Assembly (NCBI GenBank): GCA_005884255.1
Contig: VBDL01000058.1
Span: forward strand, 1 to 26,781
Reading direction: 5' to 3'
DNA from: Betaproteobacteria bacterium
Lineage (GTDB): Bacteria > Pseudomonadota > Gammaproteobacteria > Burkholderiales > Burkholderiaceae_C
Length of the DNA stretch: 26,781 nucleotides
The translations under genes and the position numbers were made by a program. Numbering within the stretch: position 1 is the first letter of the stretch; each line of letters begins with the position of its first letter. The notes beneath the pieces are model-generated. The model searched no databases. It was given only the letters and a program-made list of their open reading frames with translations, and was not told the DNA's origin. Positions 1-20,782 of this stretch are shown here, in pieces.

Positions 1-1540
1 CGTTGCCGATCCGCTTGCTCACGACCGTGTGGTACGGGGTCGCGTTGATGAAGACGATGGGCAGTTCATCGGTCACGATCTTTTGAAAGGCGGCGTAGTC
101 CGACTTGCGCTTGGCCGGATCGAGTTCGCTGCCCGCAGCGTTCAGCAACTGGTCGACCTTGGGGTTGCGGTACGACTGCGTGTTGGTCCAGACGAGCGGC
201 TTGATGTTGGTCGACAGGTAGGTGCGGGCCACGCCGATGACCGGGTCGCCCCAGTTGAAGACGCTGTCCATGGACATGTCGAAATCGTGCGTGGCCATTC
301 GCTTGGCCCATGCGGGAAAGTCCGCCGAGGCGCGCAGCTCGATCGTGATGCCGACCTTCTTGAGCTGCGAGCGCAGATATTCCGCAACGTTCTTCTGCTG
401 CTCATCGACACCAGGCAGGTAGTCCATCGTCAGCTTGAACCGTTCGCCGCCGGCACCCGCCTTGTAGCCCGCTGCATCCAGCATCGCCGTCGCCTTCTTC
501 AGGTCGAACGGATAGCGGACCAGGTCGTCCGATGCGAACGGACTACCCGCGATGATCGGCCCGTCCGCTGCAGCCGCAAAGCCGCCCATCATGGCCTTGG
601 TGATGAAGCTCTTGTCGATCGCGGTGGCGATGGCCTTGCGTACCACCACGTCTGACAAGGGCTTGCGGGTCAGGTTGAATGCCAGCCAGTTGAGGGCGCC
701 GGCACCTTCATAACCCTTGGCGAAGCGCATCAACTTCGGGTCGTTGCCGAGCCGCCGCAGGTCCGAGGCGCCCGATACGAACGGCAGCATCTGAATGTCG
801 CCGCGCTCCATGCCGAGCACCAGGCTGGCGTTGTCGGGCGTCACGCTGATGACCACCTTGTCCAGGTAGGGCTTGCCAGCAAGGAAGAACTTGTCGAAGC
901 GCTCCATCACGATGCGCTCGCCGGGCTTGAATTCGACCAGCTTGAACGGGCCCGAGCCGACCACGTCGGTGCTGTTGCGCGGGTGGGTCTTCAGGTCCTG
1001 GCCATCGCCGTAGATGTGCTTGGGTAGGATCGGGCACAGCGCCGGGCTCATCGCGAGCACGATCGCCGGGTGCGGCACGTTCATGCGGATGATCGCGGTG
1101 TGCGGGTCGGGCGTGTCGACCTTCTCGACCGGGCCCATCATGGTCGTGAACGGGTGGTTGGCCTTGATCGCCATGATCGAGAATGCCACGTCTTCCGAGG
1201 TGATCGGCTTGCCGTCGTGGAACACCGCGTTCTTGCGCAGGTTCAAGGTCAGGCTCTTGCCGTCGGAGGCGAGCTTCCAGCTTTCGGCGAGGTACGGCTG
1301 CGGGTTCCACTTGTCATCGAAGCGCAGCGGGCTGGCGAAAAGCTGGGCTCCCGGCATCGCGGTGGAGAATCCGGACTGCACCGCGCCGTTCAGGTTGCGG
1401 GCAACCTGGGTGCTGCCGACGACCAGGGTGCCGCCCGGTTTGATGGTCTGGCCTACTGCGTACGGCGCGGTCATGACCACCGATGCGAGCAGCATTGCAC
1501 CGATCAGCATGCGCCGACGACCAGGGCCTGAATTCATCAT
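1..1540 (-). CDS. ABC transporter substrate-binding protein, family 5 (Dpp/Opp type); paralog of 10601-12193; 3' end cut by the window edge
   Basis: Translated by hand because it is absent from the ORF track (no stop inside the window). GGAAGAGG SD, then ATG at 1540: MMNSGPGRRRMLIGAMLLASVVMTAPYAVGQTIKPGGTLVVGSTQ...PYLAESW...LRKNAVFHDGKPITSEDV...VGSGPFKL. Open down to base 2 and colinear with the 10.6-12.2 kb protein; about 18 aa are missing. Confidence 0.95.
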   Translation of the reverse strand, partial: MMNSGPGRRRMLIGAMLLASVVMTAPYAVGQTIKPGGTLVVGSTQVARNLNGAVQSGFSTAMPGAQLFASPLRFDDKWNPQPYLAESWKLASDGKSLTLNLRKNAVFHDGKPITSEDVAFSIMAIKANHPFTTMMGPVEKVDTPDPHTAIIRMNVPHPAIVLAMSPALCPILPKHIYGDGQDLKTHPRNSTDVVGSGPFKLVEFKPGERIVMERFDKFFLAGKPYLDKVVISVTPDNASLVLGMERGDIQMLPFVSGASDLRRLGNDPKLMRFAKGYEGAGALNWLAFNLTRKPLSDVVVRKAIATAIDKSFITKAMMGGFAAAADGPIIAGSPFASDDLVRYPFDLKKATAMLDAAGYKAGAGGERFKLTMDYLPGVDEQQKNVAEYLRSQLKKVGITIELRASADFPAWAKRMATHDFDMSMDSVFNWGDPVIGVARTYLSTNIKPLVWTNTQSYRNPKVDQLLNAAGSELDPAKRKSDYAAFQKIVTDELPIVFINATPYHTVVSKRIGN

Positions 1541-1665
1541 GTCGACCTCTTCCAAAGGCGCGGGGCGCGCGGATCGGCGGCCCTCCCGCAACGACCCTGT
1601 TCCCGCATACAGCCAACGATAGATGGCGCGGGCGCGTGCGGCCAGAGGATCGCAAGCCATAGAGG

Positions 1666-1685
1666 CCATAACAGTGGCGTTATGG
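1666..1685. promoter_or_regulatory. Perfect 7-bp inverted repeat CCATAAC-N6-GTTATGG; candidate operator upstream of the SBP paralog
   Basis: Seen directly. It lies about 55 bp upstream of a -10-like TATCGT (minus strand, 1616-1621). AT-rich stem with no U-tract, so it looks more like an operator than a terminator. Confidence 0.45.
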
Positions 1686-1691
1686 GCGGGC

Positions 1692-18353: not shown

Positions 18354-19130
18354 ATGGCCAACGAACAACTGCAGGTCAATGGCGTGAGCGTCATCTACCC
18401 GGGACGCACGCCGATCGAGCGGGTCCATGCGCTCGACAACATCGACCTGACGATCGACCGCGGCGACTTCGTCGTCGCGCTGGGCGCCTCAGGCTGCGGC
18501 AAGACCACCCTGCTCAGCCTGATGGCCGGCTTCATCTCCCCGTCGCGCGGCGAGTTGCTGCTCGGCGGCCGGCCGGTGCAAGGGCCGGGCTCGGACCGCG
18601 GCGTGGTGTTCCAGAAGCACGCGCTGCTGCCCTGGCTGAGCGTGATGGAGAACACCGAGTTCGGCCTCAAGCTGCAGGGCGTGCCGAAGGCCGAGCGGCG
18701 CGAGATCGCCGCGCGCAACCTGGCGCTCGTGGGCCTGCAGGACTTTCACCAGCACATGATCTACCAGCTGTCGGGCGGCATGCAGCAGCGCGTGGGCATC
18801 GCCCGCGCGCTGACCTGCAACCCGGCGATGCTGCTGATGGACGAGCCGATGGCGGCGCTGGACGCGCTGACGCGCGAGACCATCCAGGAGCTGCTGCTGG
18901 ACGTGTGGCAGAAGACACGCAAGATGTTCTTCTTCATCACGCACAGCGTCGAAGAGGCGCTGTTCCTCGCCAGCCACCTGATCGTCATGTCGCCGCGCCC
19001 GGGGCGCATCACGCACCGCTACGAGCTGGACTTCAACCAGCGCTTCCTGCAGACGCGCGACGCGCGCGCGGTGAAGTCGAGCCCCGACTTCATCGCCGGA
19101 GTAGCCCACAAGGAGGTGGCCCATGTCTGA
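18354..19130 (+). CDS. tauB: Taurine ABC transporter ATP-binding protein (C-terminus possibly shortened)
   Basis: [43 protein letters not shown]. Confidence 0.92.
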
Positions 19131-19998
19131 CATCGCTCATCGCCCGCCGCGCATCATGGCCACGCCCGGCTTCCTGTCCCGACTGTTCGCCAAGCGCTCG
19201 GTCAAGCCCGGCGAGCATTTCGGCGCACCGGGGCAAGGCCACAGCGGCGCCATCAGCACCCTCACCGTGCTGGCGCTGATCGCGCTGTGGGTGCTGGTCA
19301 CCAACGCCGGGTGGGTCAAGCCGCTGTTCCTGCCGTCGCCGCAAGCGGTGCTTGCGAAGTTCGTGCAGGTGTGGAGCGAAGGCTTCGCCGGAGCCACGTT
19401 GCTGCAGCACACCTGGACCAGCCTGTACCGCGTGTTCGGCGCCTTCGCGCTGGCCTGCGCGACGGCCATCCCGATCGGCGTGCTCATGGGCGTGAGCCGC
19501 GTCGCGCGCGGCGTGTTCGATCCGCCGATCGAGTTCTACCGACCGCTGCCGCCGCTGGCCTACCTGCCGATGGTCATCATCTGGTTCGGCATCGGCGAGT
19601 TCTCGAAGGTCTACCTGATCTTCCTCGCGATCTTCGCGCCGATGGCAATCGCCGCCCGCTCGGGCGTGCGCTCGGTGTCGATCGAGCAGATCCACGCTGC
19701 GTACTCGATGGGTGCCACGCGCATGCAGGTGATCCGCCACGTGATCCTGAAGTCGGCGCTGCCGGAGATCTTCACCGGCATGCGCATCGGCATCGGCGTG
19801 GGCTGGACCACGCTGGTGGCCGGCGAGATGGTGGCCTCCACGCGCGGCCTCGGCTTCATGGTGCTCAACGCCGCGGAGTTCCTCGCCAGCGACGTGGTGG
19901 TCATGGGCATCATCGTGATCGGCCTGTTCGCCTTCGCCTTCGACCTGCTGATGCGGCATCTCGAGAAAGTTCTGGTGCCGTGGAAAGGGAAGGTCTGA
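19123..19998 (+). CDS. tauC: Taurine ABC transporter permease
   Basis: [26 protein letters not shown] (EAA loop), [10 protein letters not shown]. Confidence 0.92.
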
Positions 19999-20017
19999 GC
20001 ACGGGGACGGGGGCGGC

Positions 20018-20782
20018 GTGACTATCGCCTCGGCCGTCCTCACCTACCCGCTGTTCGCAGCCTGCGTCGCCCTGGCGACCTATGCGCAGAACCTCACCGG
20101 CTTCGCCTTCGCGCTGATCCTGCTCGGGCTGGTCAGCGCGTTGAACCTGGCGTCGGTGGTCGACGCGGCCAACGCCGCCACGCTGCTGACGCTCCTCAAC
20201 GCGGGCATCCACTTCCGGCTGCACCGGCTCACGCCGCAGTGGCGCATCATGCGGCCCGCGCTGGCCACGAGCCTCGTCGGCGTGGTGCTCGGCGTGGCAC
20301 TGCTCGCCTGGTTGAGCGGCAATGCGGTGCAGGCCCTGCGCGGCCTGCTGGGCGTGGTGATCATGGCCTGCGCAGTGCTGCTGCTGTTGAACGGGAGGCC
20401 ACGCGCGACGCTGTCGGGCCCCGGCCCTTTTGCGCTGGCGGGCGTGGTGTCCGGTGTCATGGGCGGGCTCTTCTCGAGCCCCGGGCCACCGCTCGTCTAC
20501 CACATGTACCGGCAACCGCTGGAGCGCTGGGTGGTGATGCAGTGCCTGCTGCTCGTGTTCACGGTGAATGCGGCGCTGCGGCTGGTGCTGGTGATCGTCG
20601 CGGGCGAGATGTCGCTGCGCTCACTTGCGCTCAGTGCCTGCGCCGTTCCCGCCGTGGTTCTGGTGAACCGCTGGCATCACCGGCGTCCGCCCGGCTTCAG
20701 CGCCGACACGGTGCGGCGCCTGGTCGGCGGCCTGCTCGTGCTGGCAGGCCTGGCACTCGTGGGCACCGCGGGGGTACTATGA
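20018..20782 (+). CDS. tauE: TauE/SafE (TSUP) family sulfite exporter
   Basis: GTG start, multiple TM helices, TGFAFAL and GGLFSSPGPPLV motifs; follows tauC. Confidence 0.75.
   Translation: MTIASAVLTYPLFAACVALATYAQNLTGFAFALILLGLVSALNLASVVDAANAATLLTLLNAGIHFRLHRLTPQWRIMRPALATSLVGVVLGVALLAWLSGNAVQALRGLLGVVIMACAVLLLLNGRPRATLSGPGPFALAGVVSGVMGGLFSSPGPPLVYHMYRQPLERWVVMQCLLLVFTVNAALRLVLVIVAGEMSLRSLALSACAVPAVVLVNRWHHRRPPGFSADTVRRLVGGLLVLAGLALVGTAGVL

Follow-up and report, generated by a model that had tools for sequence, protein, structure and literature searches.

Taurine and N-acetyltaurine are widespread excreted sulfonates, and the genes by which their carbon, nitrogen and sulfur re-enter the soil pool have, to our knowledge, been described in no more than a few model strains. 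Catabolism of N-acetyltaurine (naa) reportedly involves NaaS, a metal amidohydrolase of ~60 kDa, the COG0523 protein NaaT and the LysR-type regulator NaaR. The genes form the naaROPST cluster in Cupriavidus necator H16 (Denger, Lehmann & Cook 2011, as cited in PMC4334477) and, in Ruegeria pomeroyi DSS-3, a cluster of naaT, naaS, naaR and naaABB'CC' (SPO0657-0664; PMC4334477). In Comamonadaceae, the regulon of TauR includes 'OppABCDF, COG523 and COG1574' proteins with no role assigned; for these ABC, COG1574 and COG523 genes, Suvorova and Rodionov suggested a link between gamma-aminobutyric acid and taurine (Suvorova & Rodionov 2016, PMC5320631). Here we describe a locus related to all three, found on a complete contig (C552) of 26,781 bases, hereafter the window, from a soil metagenome-assembled genome (MAG; G000) of 852 contigs, 76.8% completeness and ~69% G+C.

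We read the locus, with a probability of about 0.72, as a catabolic island that is intact in its host, a soil member of the Comamonadaceae, and that would serve the use of taurine together with N-acetyltaurine (or a closely related N-acyl taurine). Its predicted core, an ATP-binding cassette (ABC)-type naa system joined to taurine (tau) and sulfite oxidation genes, is supported by orthology and gene order.

A probable ABC-type naa system beside the taurine genes

The enzyme at the centre of the system is an Amidohydro_3 protein. Its intact form (P0004) is 58% identical to the enzyme of C. necator SHC 2-3 (locus L077), where a divergent LysR gene is followed by DUF3311, symporter, amidohydrolase and COG0523 genes, the naaROPST pattern. 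NCBIfam holds no NaaS model. The NaaS identity rests on a species-level orthologue and on cluster layout, with the SHC 2-3 gene as our reference in place of the purified H16 protein.

A maximum-likelihood tree of 84 orthologues and two paralogues separates the 84-row orthogroup, which includes the C. necator gene, from the paralogues by a branch of 3.98 (99*). Symporter-linked Burkholderiaceae enzymes make up a single clade (100*), and the window enzyme groups with those of Variovorax and Polaromonas in a clade of Comamonadaceae (100*). The sequence-only reading of this DNA hinged on the amidohydrolase grouping with NaaS, and the tree does place it in the orthogroup of the C. necator gene.

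Plasmids and chromids searched with P0002, the intact orthologue of a complete genome of the same family (G022), yielded orthologues at 52-60% identity in Burkholderia, Caballeronia, Variovorax, Tistrella and Paracoccus, below which identity falls sharply to 35%. The Burkholderia multivorans locus reads LysR, DUF3311, sodium:solute symporter, amidohydrolase and GTP-binding protein. That of Paracoccus aminovorans, with a 52% amidohydrolase orthologue, has an ABC importer, a binding protein and a LysR gene divergent from the amidohydrolase and GTP-binding protein genes, which is the R. pomeroyi layout.

We then surveyed 80 orthologous loci, scanning one genome per species. A COG0523 gene lies 3' of the amidohydrolase gene in about 75 of the 80, the exceptions being cut contigs or, once, a gene on the opposite strand; the window's own naaT, with cobW and CobW_C domains, lies 19 bases past the naaS stop. 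The importer beside the amidohydrolase is a Dpp-type ABC transporter in half of the loci (40/80) and a DUF3311 protein with a symporter in 23/80, with neither present within the flank in 17/80. The window belongs to the first type: an SBP_bac_5 binding protein (SBP1), two permeases and two oligo_HPY ATPases are encoded directly upstream, in one direction. SBP1 is 53% identical to the P. aminovorans binding protein of the cluster just described, and the naaC' and naaC ATPases are 77-87% identical to their orthologues in G022 and in G365, a complete genome from another genus of the family. An ABC-type naa system had been predicted for this bacterium from its DNA, and the combination of a five-component Dpp-type importer, an amidohydrolase of the C. 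necator orthogroup and a COG0523 protein agrees with that prediction.

Gene organisation of the island

Genes were called from third-codon-position G+C (GC3) frame analysis and from Pfam and NCBIfam scans of the window. Together these recover all the genes that the sequence-only inventory had named, so that inventory was right; an Rfam scan of the window gave no match to any RNA family. On the minus strand, genes of one direction follow each other without a break from 17211 to base 1; on the plus strand, a divergent unit spans 17327-20782. Minus-strand transcription proceeds through tauR, tauX, tauY, the sulfite dehydrogenase, cytochrome c, SBP1, two permeases and two ATPases, and then through an AtzC/CodA-like hydrolase, a 40-codon remnant, the Amidohydro_3 and COG0523 genes, a LysR gene and a second binding protein (SBP2). 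The features are as follows, the plus-strand unit first and the minus strand in order of transcription.

20018-20782, plus strand: tauE, sulfite exporter (Pfam TauE)
17327-18343, 18354-19130 and 19123-19998, plus strand: tauA, tauB and tauC (Pfam NMT1/OpuAC, ABC_tran and BPD_transp_1)
17243-17274, plus strand: TauR-type operator in the tauR-tauA divergent region (one mismatch to the pattern)
15715-17211, minus strand: tauR, MocR-type regulator (Pfam GntR and Aminotran_1_2)
15672-15703, minus strand: TauR-type operator 5' of tauX (direct-repeat pattern match)
15235-15618, minus strand: tauX, taurine dehydrogenase small subunit (SnoaL/NTF2; Pfam)
13812-15230, minus strand: tauY, taurine dehydrogenase large subunit (DAO; Pfam)
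12647-13815, minus strand: SorT-family periplasmic sulfite dehydrogenase with a twin-arginine signal (NCBIfam NF052247)
12333-12650, minus strand: cytochrome c, SorU-like (Pfam Cytochrome_CBB3; 105-amino-acid gene call in contig L105)
12248-12279, minus strand: TauR-type operator 5' of naaA (direct-repeat pattern match)
10601-12193, minus strand: SBP1, naaA-type binding protein of ~530 amino acids (Pfam SBP_bac_5, 266 bits; tree)
9602-10579 and 8664-~9605, minus strand: naaB and naaB', ABC permeases (Pfam BPD_transp_1, OppC_N and BPD_transp_1_N; L105 gene calls)
7633-~8650 and 6554-7636, minus strand: naaC and naaC', ABC ATPases (Pfam ABC_tran and oligo_HPY)
5347-6549, minus strand: AtzC/CodA-like amidohydrolase (Amidohydro_1), intact, 400 amino acids (NCBIfam NF004636/PRK05985)
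5220-5345, minus strand: DMT_YdcZ remnant, C-terminal 40 codons (comparison with contigs L033, L105 and L106)
3606-5197, minus strand: naaS-type Amidohydro_3 metal amidohydrolase (Pfam; orthogroup tree)
2623-3586, minus strand: naaT-type COG0523 metallochaperone GTPase (Pfam cobW and CobW_C)
1692-2654, minus strand: LysR-family regulator (Pfam HTH_1 and LysR_substrate)
1-1540, minus strand: SBP2, orphan NaaA-family binding protein (Pfam SBP_bac_5, 269 bits), its last ~19 codons lying beyond the contig

Predicted regulation by TauR

The TauR-type operators consist of two 10-base direct repeats spaced 23 bases start to start. The pattern TGGNNCYA-N15-TGGNNCTAY has three matches in the window, against 0.03 expected. 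They precede tauA, tauX and naaA and fall only in promoter gaps; elsewhere in the window there is no match, even with one mismatch allowed. These boxes resemble the published TauR consensus of CTGGACYTAA direct repeats (PMC5320631), and the adjacent tauR is 45-79% identical to the genes at the TauR position of relatives. The same box is found just upstream of naa binding-protein or DUF3311/symporter genes in 12 other loci from several genera. Since an operator precedes naaA, we propose that taurine released inside the cell would induce the conjugate importer.

A TauR-type box also stands before naa clusters of the DUF3311 and symporter type in Caballeronia, Trinickia and Paraburkholderia (loci L066, L081, L087 and L089 at ~8090-8260; L054 and L090 at ~7145), so TauR control of naa genes does not appear to be limited to the ABC type.

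Is the LysR gene of the island a NaaR, as had been supposed? We rejected this assignment on pairwise comparison and on the gene's own conserved pairing. The protein matches the LysR at the NaaR position of C. necator at 33% identity over only 90 residues, and pairwise comparison detects no significant similarity to the LysRs of the Burkholderia and Paracoccus naa clusters. Its orthologues (52-60%) in G365 and in another genome, G476, lie directly beside an adenosine-deaminase-like (Ada-like) gene. Its likely target is the downstream Ada-like gene, and perhaps SBP2 as well. The LysR and Ada-like genes are a neighbouring unit outside the naa system; as an adjacent pair they are kept in three genomes (L106:6855-7808; L138, ~9275; L139, ~10957).

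Taurine oxidation and sulfite disposal

TauX and TauY form a pair of an SnoaL/NTF2 small subunit and a DAO large subunit, by Pfam. TauX is 56% identical to a protein of Sinorhizobium meliloti whose gene occupies the tauX slot behind tauABC on pSymB (PMC12239276). A tauXY pair adjoining naa genes is conserved in many loci, and the window's tauABC genes are 81-88% identical to those of G365.

The next enzymes of the pathway are encoded on another contig of the MAG, C385. Its xsc is partial, with a contig end and a frame break, and scores 315 and 285 bits over profile positions 231-579; the encoded Xsc is ~90% identical to that of a metagenome contig, L129, and pta is 79% identical. Sulfite oxidation had been ascribed to 'sorAB'. 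This name does not hold for the catalytic subunit, which scores 624.9 bits with the SorT model NF052247 (cut-off 570) and 197 bits with the SorA model NF052245 (cut-off 600); on these NCBIfam scores we rejected SorA in favour of SorT. The sorT start overlaps the tauY stop (GTGA), so that tauXY, sorT and the cytochrome c gene make one unit, and the cytochrome is likely to be the electron acceptor of the sulfite dehydrogenase. The predicted path from taurine to sulfite and sulfate is thus complete, with tauXY, sorT, the cytochrome c gene and tauE in the window and xsc and pta on C385.

Conservation in relatives

The linkage of naa and tau genes extends well beyond this bacterium, as had been anticipated: tauX/Y, tauR or tauABC lie within 10 kb of the amidohydrolase gene in 48 of the 80 loci. 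In G022, tauCBA, COG0523, amidohydrolase, ABC and binding-protein genes adjoin tauR, tauY and tauX. In G365, which is probably Ramlibacter sp. 2FC, the entire island recurs with its genes ordered as they are in the window: pta, xsc, ..., Ada-like, LysR, naaT, naaS, AtzC-like, naaC'CB'BA, cytochrome c, sorT, tauY, tauX, tauR and tauABC. Most of the G365 proteins are 76-90% identical to those of the window, with lower values for cytochrome c, naaB', naaT and LysR (60-71%) and for the Ada-like protein (47%). On L129, tauR, tauX, tauY, sorT, cytochrome c, naaA through naaC', the AtzC-like gene, naaS and naaT follow in this order, with xsc and pta ~4 kb beyond and without the LysR and Ada-like pair.

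The arrangement is not peculiar to this genome: the order recurs in G365, its core in L129, and the operon already figures in the published TauR regulon (PMC5320631). The island is a conserved, largely known catabolic type, the exceptions being the extra hydrolase and the extra binding protein.

Accessory hydrolase and second binding protein

The AtzC/CodA-like hydrolase matches NF004636 at 505.8 bits (cut-off 408) and falls below the cut-offs of all the cytosine deaminase models, on which grounds a true cytosine deaminase (CodA) was rejected. Its nearest Protein Data Bank entries are 6nbo (E-value 5e-102), AtzC (2qt3, 5e-54) and CodA (1e-36). Although no close orthologue (>50%) occurs among 300 sampled genomes of the order, a large protein collection contains many homologues at 69-83% identity, for four of which (L129-L132) we examined the genomic context.

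SBP2 is 531 amino acids long in its full form, on contig L106, where an adenosine-deaminase-family gene comes next. The protein shares 75-78% identity with SBP1, and its place in the tree is inside the Comamonadaceae NaaA clade; it may stem from a duplication within the lineage or from transfer from another Comamonadaceae. As the LysR orthologues adjoin the Ada-like gene elsewhere, SBP2 looks like a NaaA paralogue wedged between the two.

Could these two genes extend the system to a wider range of N-substituted taurines, the hydrolase and SBP2 each handling additional conjugates that are funnelled to taurine? The hydrolase gene starts 4 bases after naaC', is co-directional with naaS and belongs to the unit that begins at the TauR box. 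It keeps its slot between naaC' and naaS across genera, in no fewer than five genomes or contigs (the window, L033, L129, L130 from Comamonas granuli, and G365), and SBP2 is a true NaaA-family paralogue on a longer branch than SBP1 (0.25 versus 0.14). However, homologues of the hydrolase in Polaromonas glacialis (L131, 73%) and Thalassobaculum fulvum (L132, 71%) occur with other Dpp-type importers in operons without taurine genes, and more distant ones on plasmids (44-49%) stand in varied contexts that give no consistent clue to the substrate. SBP2, for its part, sits inside the conserved LysR and Ada-like pair with no TauR box nearby, and both extra genes are missing from most naa-ABC operons. 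We therefore regard an extended substrate range as unlikely and treat the hydrolase and SBP2 as accessory parts of the island. For the hydrolase, its predicted co-transcription with naa behind a TauR box still favours some role connected with taurine, a reading that the contexts without taurine genes temper. A more particular version, in which the hydrolase, possibly with SBP2, would provide a second taurine-releasing route from amidine, guanidine or heterocyclic conjugates rather than acyl ones, seems more doubtful still; if true, it would make the island a multi-substrate scavenger of taurine conjugates in a sub-lineage of Comamonadaceae.

The P. glacialis operon (L131, 2176-11245) comprises GntR, Asp-Glu-racemase, Dpp-type ABC and second amidohydrolase genes, including the AtzC-like homologue, followed by two TctC genes. 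It is an import-and-hydrolyse module without taurine genes.

Substrate of the amidohydrolase

A second alternative concerns the conjugate itself. The ABC, amidohydrolase and COG0523 operon might act on another taurine amide, such as gamma-glutamyltaurine or longer N-acyl taurines, with N-acetyltaurine limited to the symporter-linked Burkholderiaceae clade. That clade stands apart from the ABC-linked enzymes in the tree (100*), identity between the two sets is only ~55-63%, and the operon has a peptide-type (Dpp/Opp) importer. On the other hand, the orthogroup is tight relative to the paralogues, the metal-ligand and other conserved motifs are common to both clades, the annotation of R. pomeroyi, drawing on work cited in PMC4334477, includes an ABC-type naa system, and naaS is expressed in that species (PMC9870897). 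These observations make a different substrate class rather improbable, and we retain N-acetyltaurine or a close N-acyl taurine as the predicted substrate.

Probable assembly gaps rather than gene decay

In the window the reading frame changes within three genes of the island: at 4096/4097 in the Amidohydro_3 gene, near 3500 in the COG0523 gene and at 13636 in the sulfite dehydrogenase gene. The N-terminus of the COG0523 protein, with its P-loop, and the TAT (twin-arginine)-like N-terminus of SorT are each found in a different frame of the window. The bases absent number 14 at ~3499-3503 (COG0523), 67 at 4096/4097 (amidohydrolase) and 25 at 13636 (sorT); the 67-base block encodes ...AIERVLARHPRPDHRHTLQHGQM....

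When the amidohydrolase, joined across its break with an X, was used to query the large protein collection, it retrieved six proteins of 552-553 amino acids from ENA and JGI assemblies. One of them, P0004 (552 amino acids, full alignment), is 100% identical to the window over the shared residues and has 22 further residues, including the conserved ...HRHTLQH...; the remaining matches show 96% identity (530/552), consistent with the same relationship. The sequence-only reading proposed a repaired enzyme of about 555 amino acids; the genes would need no repair, the blocks being present in other assemblies. Contigs L105 and L106, which come from independent assemblies of the same population, match the window at 99.4-99.7% identity and include the 14-, 67- and 25-base blocks, which restore all three frames, and naaT is intact at 325 amino acids in both. 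L105 has private gaps of its own, of 151 bases (window 7408-7558) and 54 bases (~12670-12723), at sites where the window is intact, which argues for a technical cause.

Public contigs of four soil runs were also aligned with the window; the word depth of the matching contigs is only ~4-6. Those of runs X1, X2 and X3 match the window as far as position 4097 exactly, beyond which their sequence differs, and the 25-base sorT block occurs in contigs of X1 and X2 as well as in L105. The xsc gene on C385 is likewise frame-broken (G000:C385:2595-2622). The three breaks are thus very probably faults of the MAG assembly, and as the missing blocks occur in independent assemblies and public contigs, the amidohydrolase, COG0523 and sulfite dehydrogenase genes are most likely intact in the organism.

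The 40-codon YdcZ remnant (5220-5345) is another matter. L105 and L106 have the same remnant, unchanged, and it aligns at 48% identity with the C-terminus of a complete YdcZ of 148 amino acids (PF04657, 122.6 bits) at the equivalent position of the MAG contig L033. The remnant, which the sequence-only reading had described as such, is a genuine deletion scar.

That naaS, naaT and sorT are true pseudogenes of a decaying locus, disrupted by block deletions in this strain, would fit the three frame-breaking gaps of the deposited window and the proof of real deletions given by the ydcZ remnant, but we rejected this as very improbable given the blocks in two independent assemblies at >99% identity, the different private gaps of L105, the departure of contigs from three other runs at 4096/4097 and the 25-base block in two of them, the broken xsc elsewhere in the same MAG and a coverage of only ~4-6x.

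Each low-coverage assembly of this population shows its own private, frame-breaking block gaps, of 14-151 bases, that mimic pseudogenes; such gaps may also depress the estimate of MAG completeness. In practice, block 'deletions' in low-coverage soil MAGs can look like pseudogenisation.

Several considerations weigh against our interpretation of the island as an intact naa and taurine system. The prediction of the substrate depends on an orthologue, that of C. necator, at 58% identity, and because the ligands of Dpp-type binding proteins are mostly peptides, a different taurine amide could be the real one. The three window sites themselves supplied the operator pattern, although it is similar to the published consensus and is also present in other genera. 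Finally, the evidence from public runs consists of contigs, in which only the 25-base block appears as an explicit insertion, and the deleted alleles may be real minority variants in the source sample.

Proposed route and implications

The genes suggest the following route. The NaaA-type protein would bind the conjugate in the periplasm and the five-component Dpp-type ABC transporter would import it; the NaaS-type metal amidohydrolase, its metal presumably loaded by the adjacent COG0523 metallochaperone, would then cleave it into taurine and an acid. TauABC would offer a second entry, for free taurine. TauXY would convert taurine to sulfoacetaldehyde and ammonium, and Xsc and Pta would turn sulfoacetaldehyde into acetyl-CoA and sulfite. 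The sulfite would be exported by TauE and oxidised to sulfate by the periplasmic SorT-type dehydrogenase and cytochrome c. Coordination of expression would fall to the MocR-type TauR, acting through the direct-repeat operators before tauA, tauX and naaA, rather than to a LysR of the NaaR type.

In Comamonadaceae, the conjugate importer and amidase thus appear to be wired into the TauR regulon and are physically joined to genes for taurine oxidation and sulfite detoxification. The naa link would give a functional name to the unexplained 'OppABCDF/COG1574/COG523' genes of published regulon reconstructions. Cultured relatives are available, namely Comamonas granuli and, probably, Ramlibacter sp. 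2FC.

Neighbouring genes

Directly 3' of tauE, at 20792-23679, lie a PilZ-domain gene and a gene for a GAF-GAF-GGDEF-EAL protein of ~880 amino acids (cyclic di-GMP signalling). Partial paralogues occur elsewhere in the MAG, on four or five contigs (C541, C227 and C668; C152 more weakly). The GGDEF-EAL gene is followed at 23546-25397 by genes for a glutathione S-transferase and a zinc-type alcohol dehydrogenase, for which we saw no tie to the taurine island. A second SnoaL-like gene (188 amino acids, minus strand, 25853-26419) lies near the contig end; the adjoining open reading frames have no Pfam matches.

Comparison with known systems

Growth of S. meliloti on taurine is associated with SorT and SorU. 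As in that system, the window combines a periplasmic molybdenum sulfite dehydrogenase and a separate small cytochrome c with sulfonate catabolism genes; unlike there, sorT lies inside the tauXY operon, its start overlapping the tauY stop. The accessory hydrolase shares the amidohydrolase superfamily fold with AtzC (N-isopropylammelide isopropylaminohydrolase) and CodA, a likeness at family level; it differs from both in belonging to the uncharacterised NF004636/PRK05985 subfamily and in scoring below the cytosine deaminase cut-offs.

Among the closest known systems for the naa enzyme pair is naaROPST of C. necator. In both, an orthologous Amidohydro_3 gene (58%, taking the SHC 2-3 gene) is directly followed by COG0523, and the product, taurine, would feed the tau pathway. 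The importers differ, however: DUF3311 and a sodium:solute symporter in C. necator, a five-component Dpp-type ABC transporter in the window. The window also lacks an orthologous NaaR, having a TauR operator before the operon instead, and places the AtzC/CodA-like hydrolase and the ydcZ remnant between the transporter genes and naaS.

With the naa cluster of R. pomeroyi the window shares the list of components, that is, a binding protein, two permeases, two ATPases, an amidohydrolase and a COG0523 protein. R. pomeroyi itself was compared by annotation, and its layout is represented by P. aminovorans, whose enzyme and binding protein are 52-53% orthologues of those in the window. In contrast to R. 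pomeroyi, the window genes all run in one direction as a single unit headed by the transporter, and the adjacent LysR is unrelated.

In regulation the window resembles the TauR regulon of Comamonadaceae, with which it shares a MocR-type TauR, direct-repeat operators, tauABC, tauXY, tauE and the OppABCDF/COG523/COG1574 operon. It departs from the published regulon in two respects: the ABC, COG1574 and COG523 genes are here tied to the naa orthologue group, and SorT, cytochrome c and the AtzC-like hydrolase are extra members in the window's lineage.

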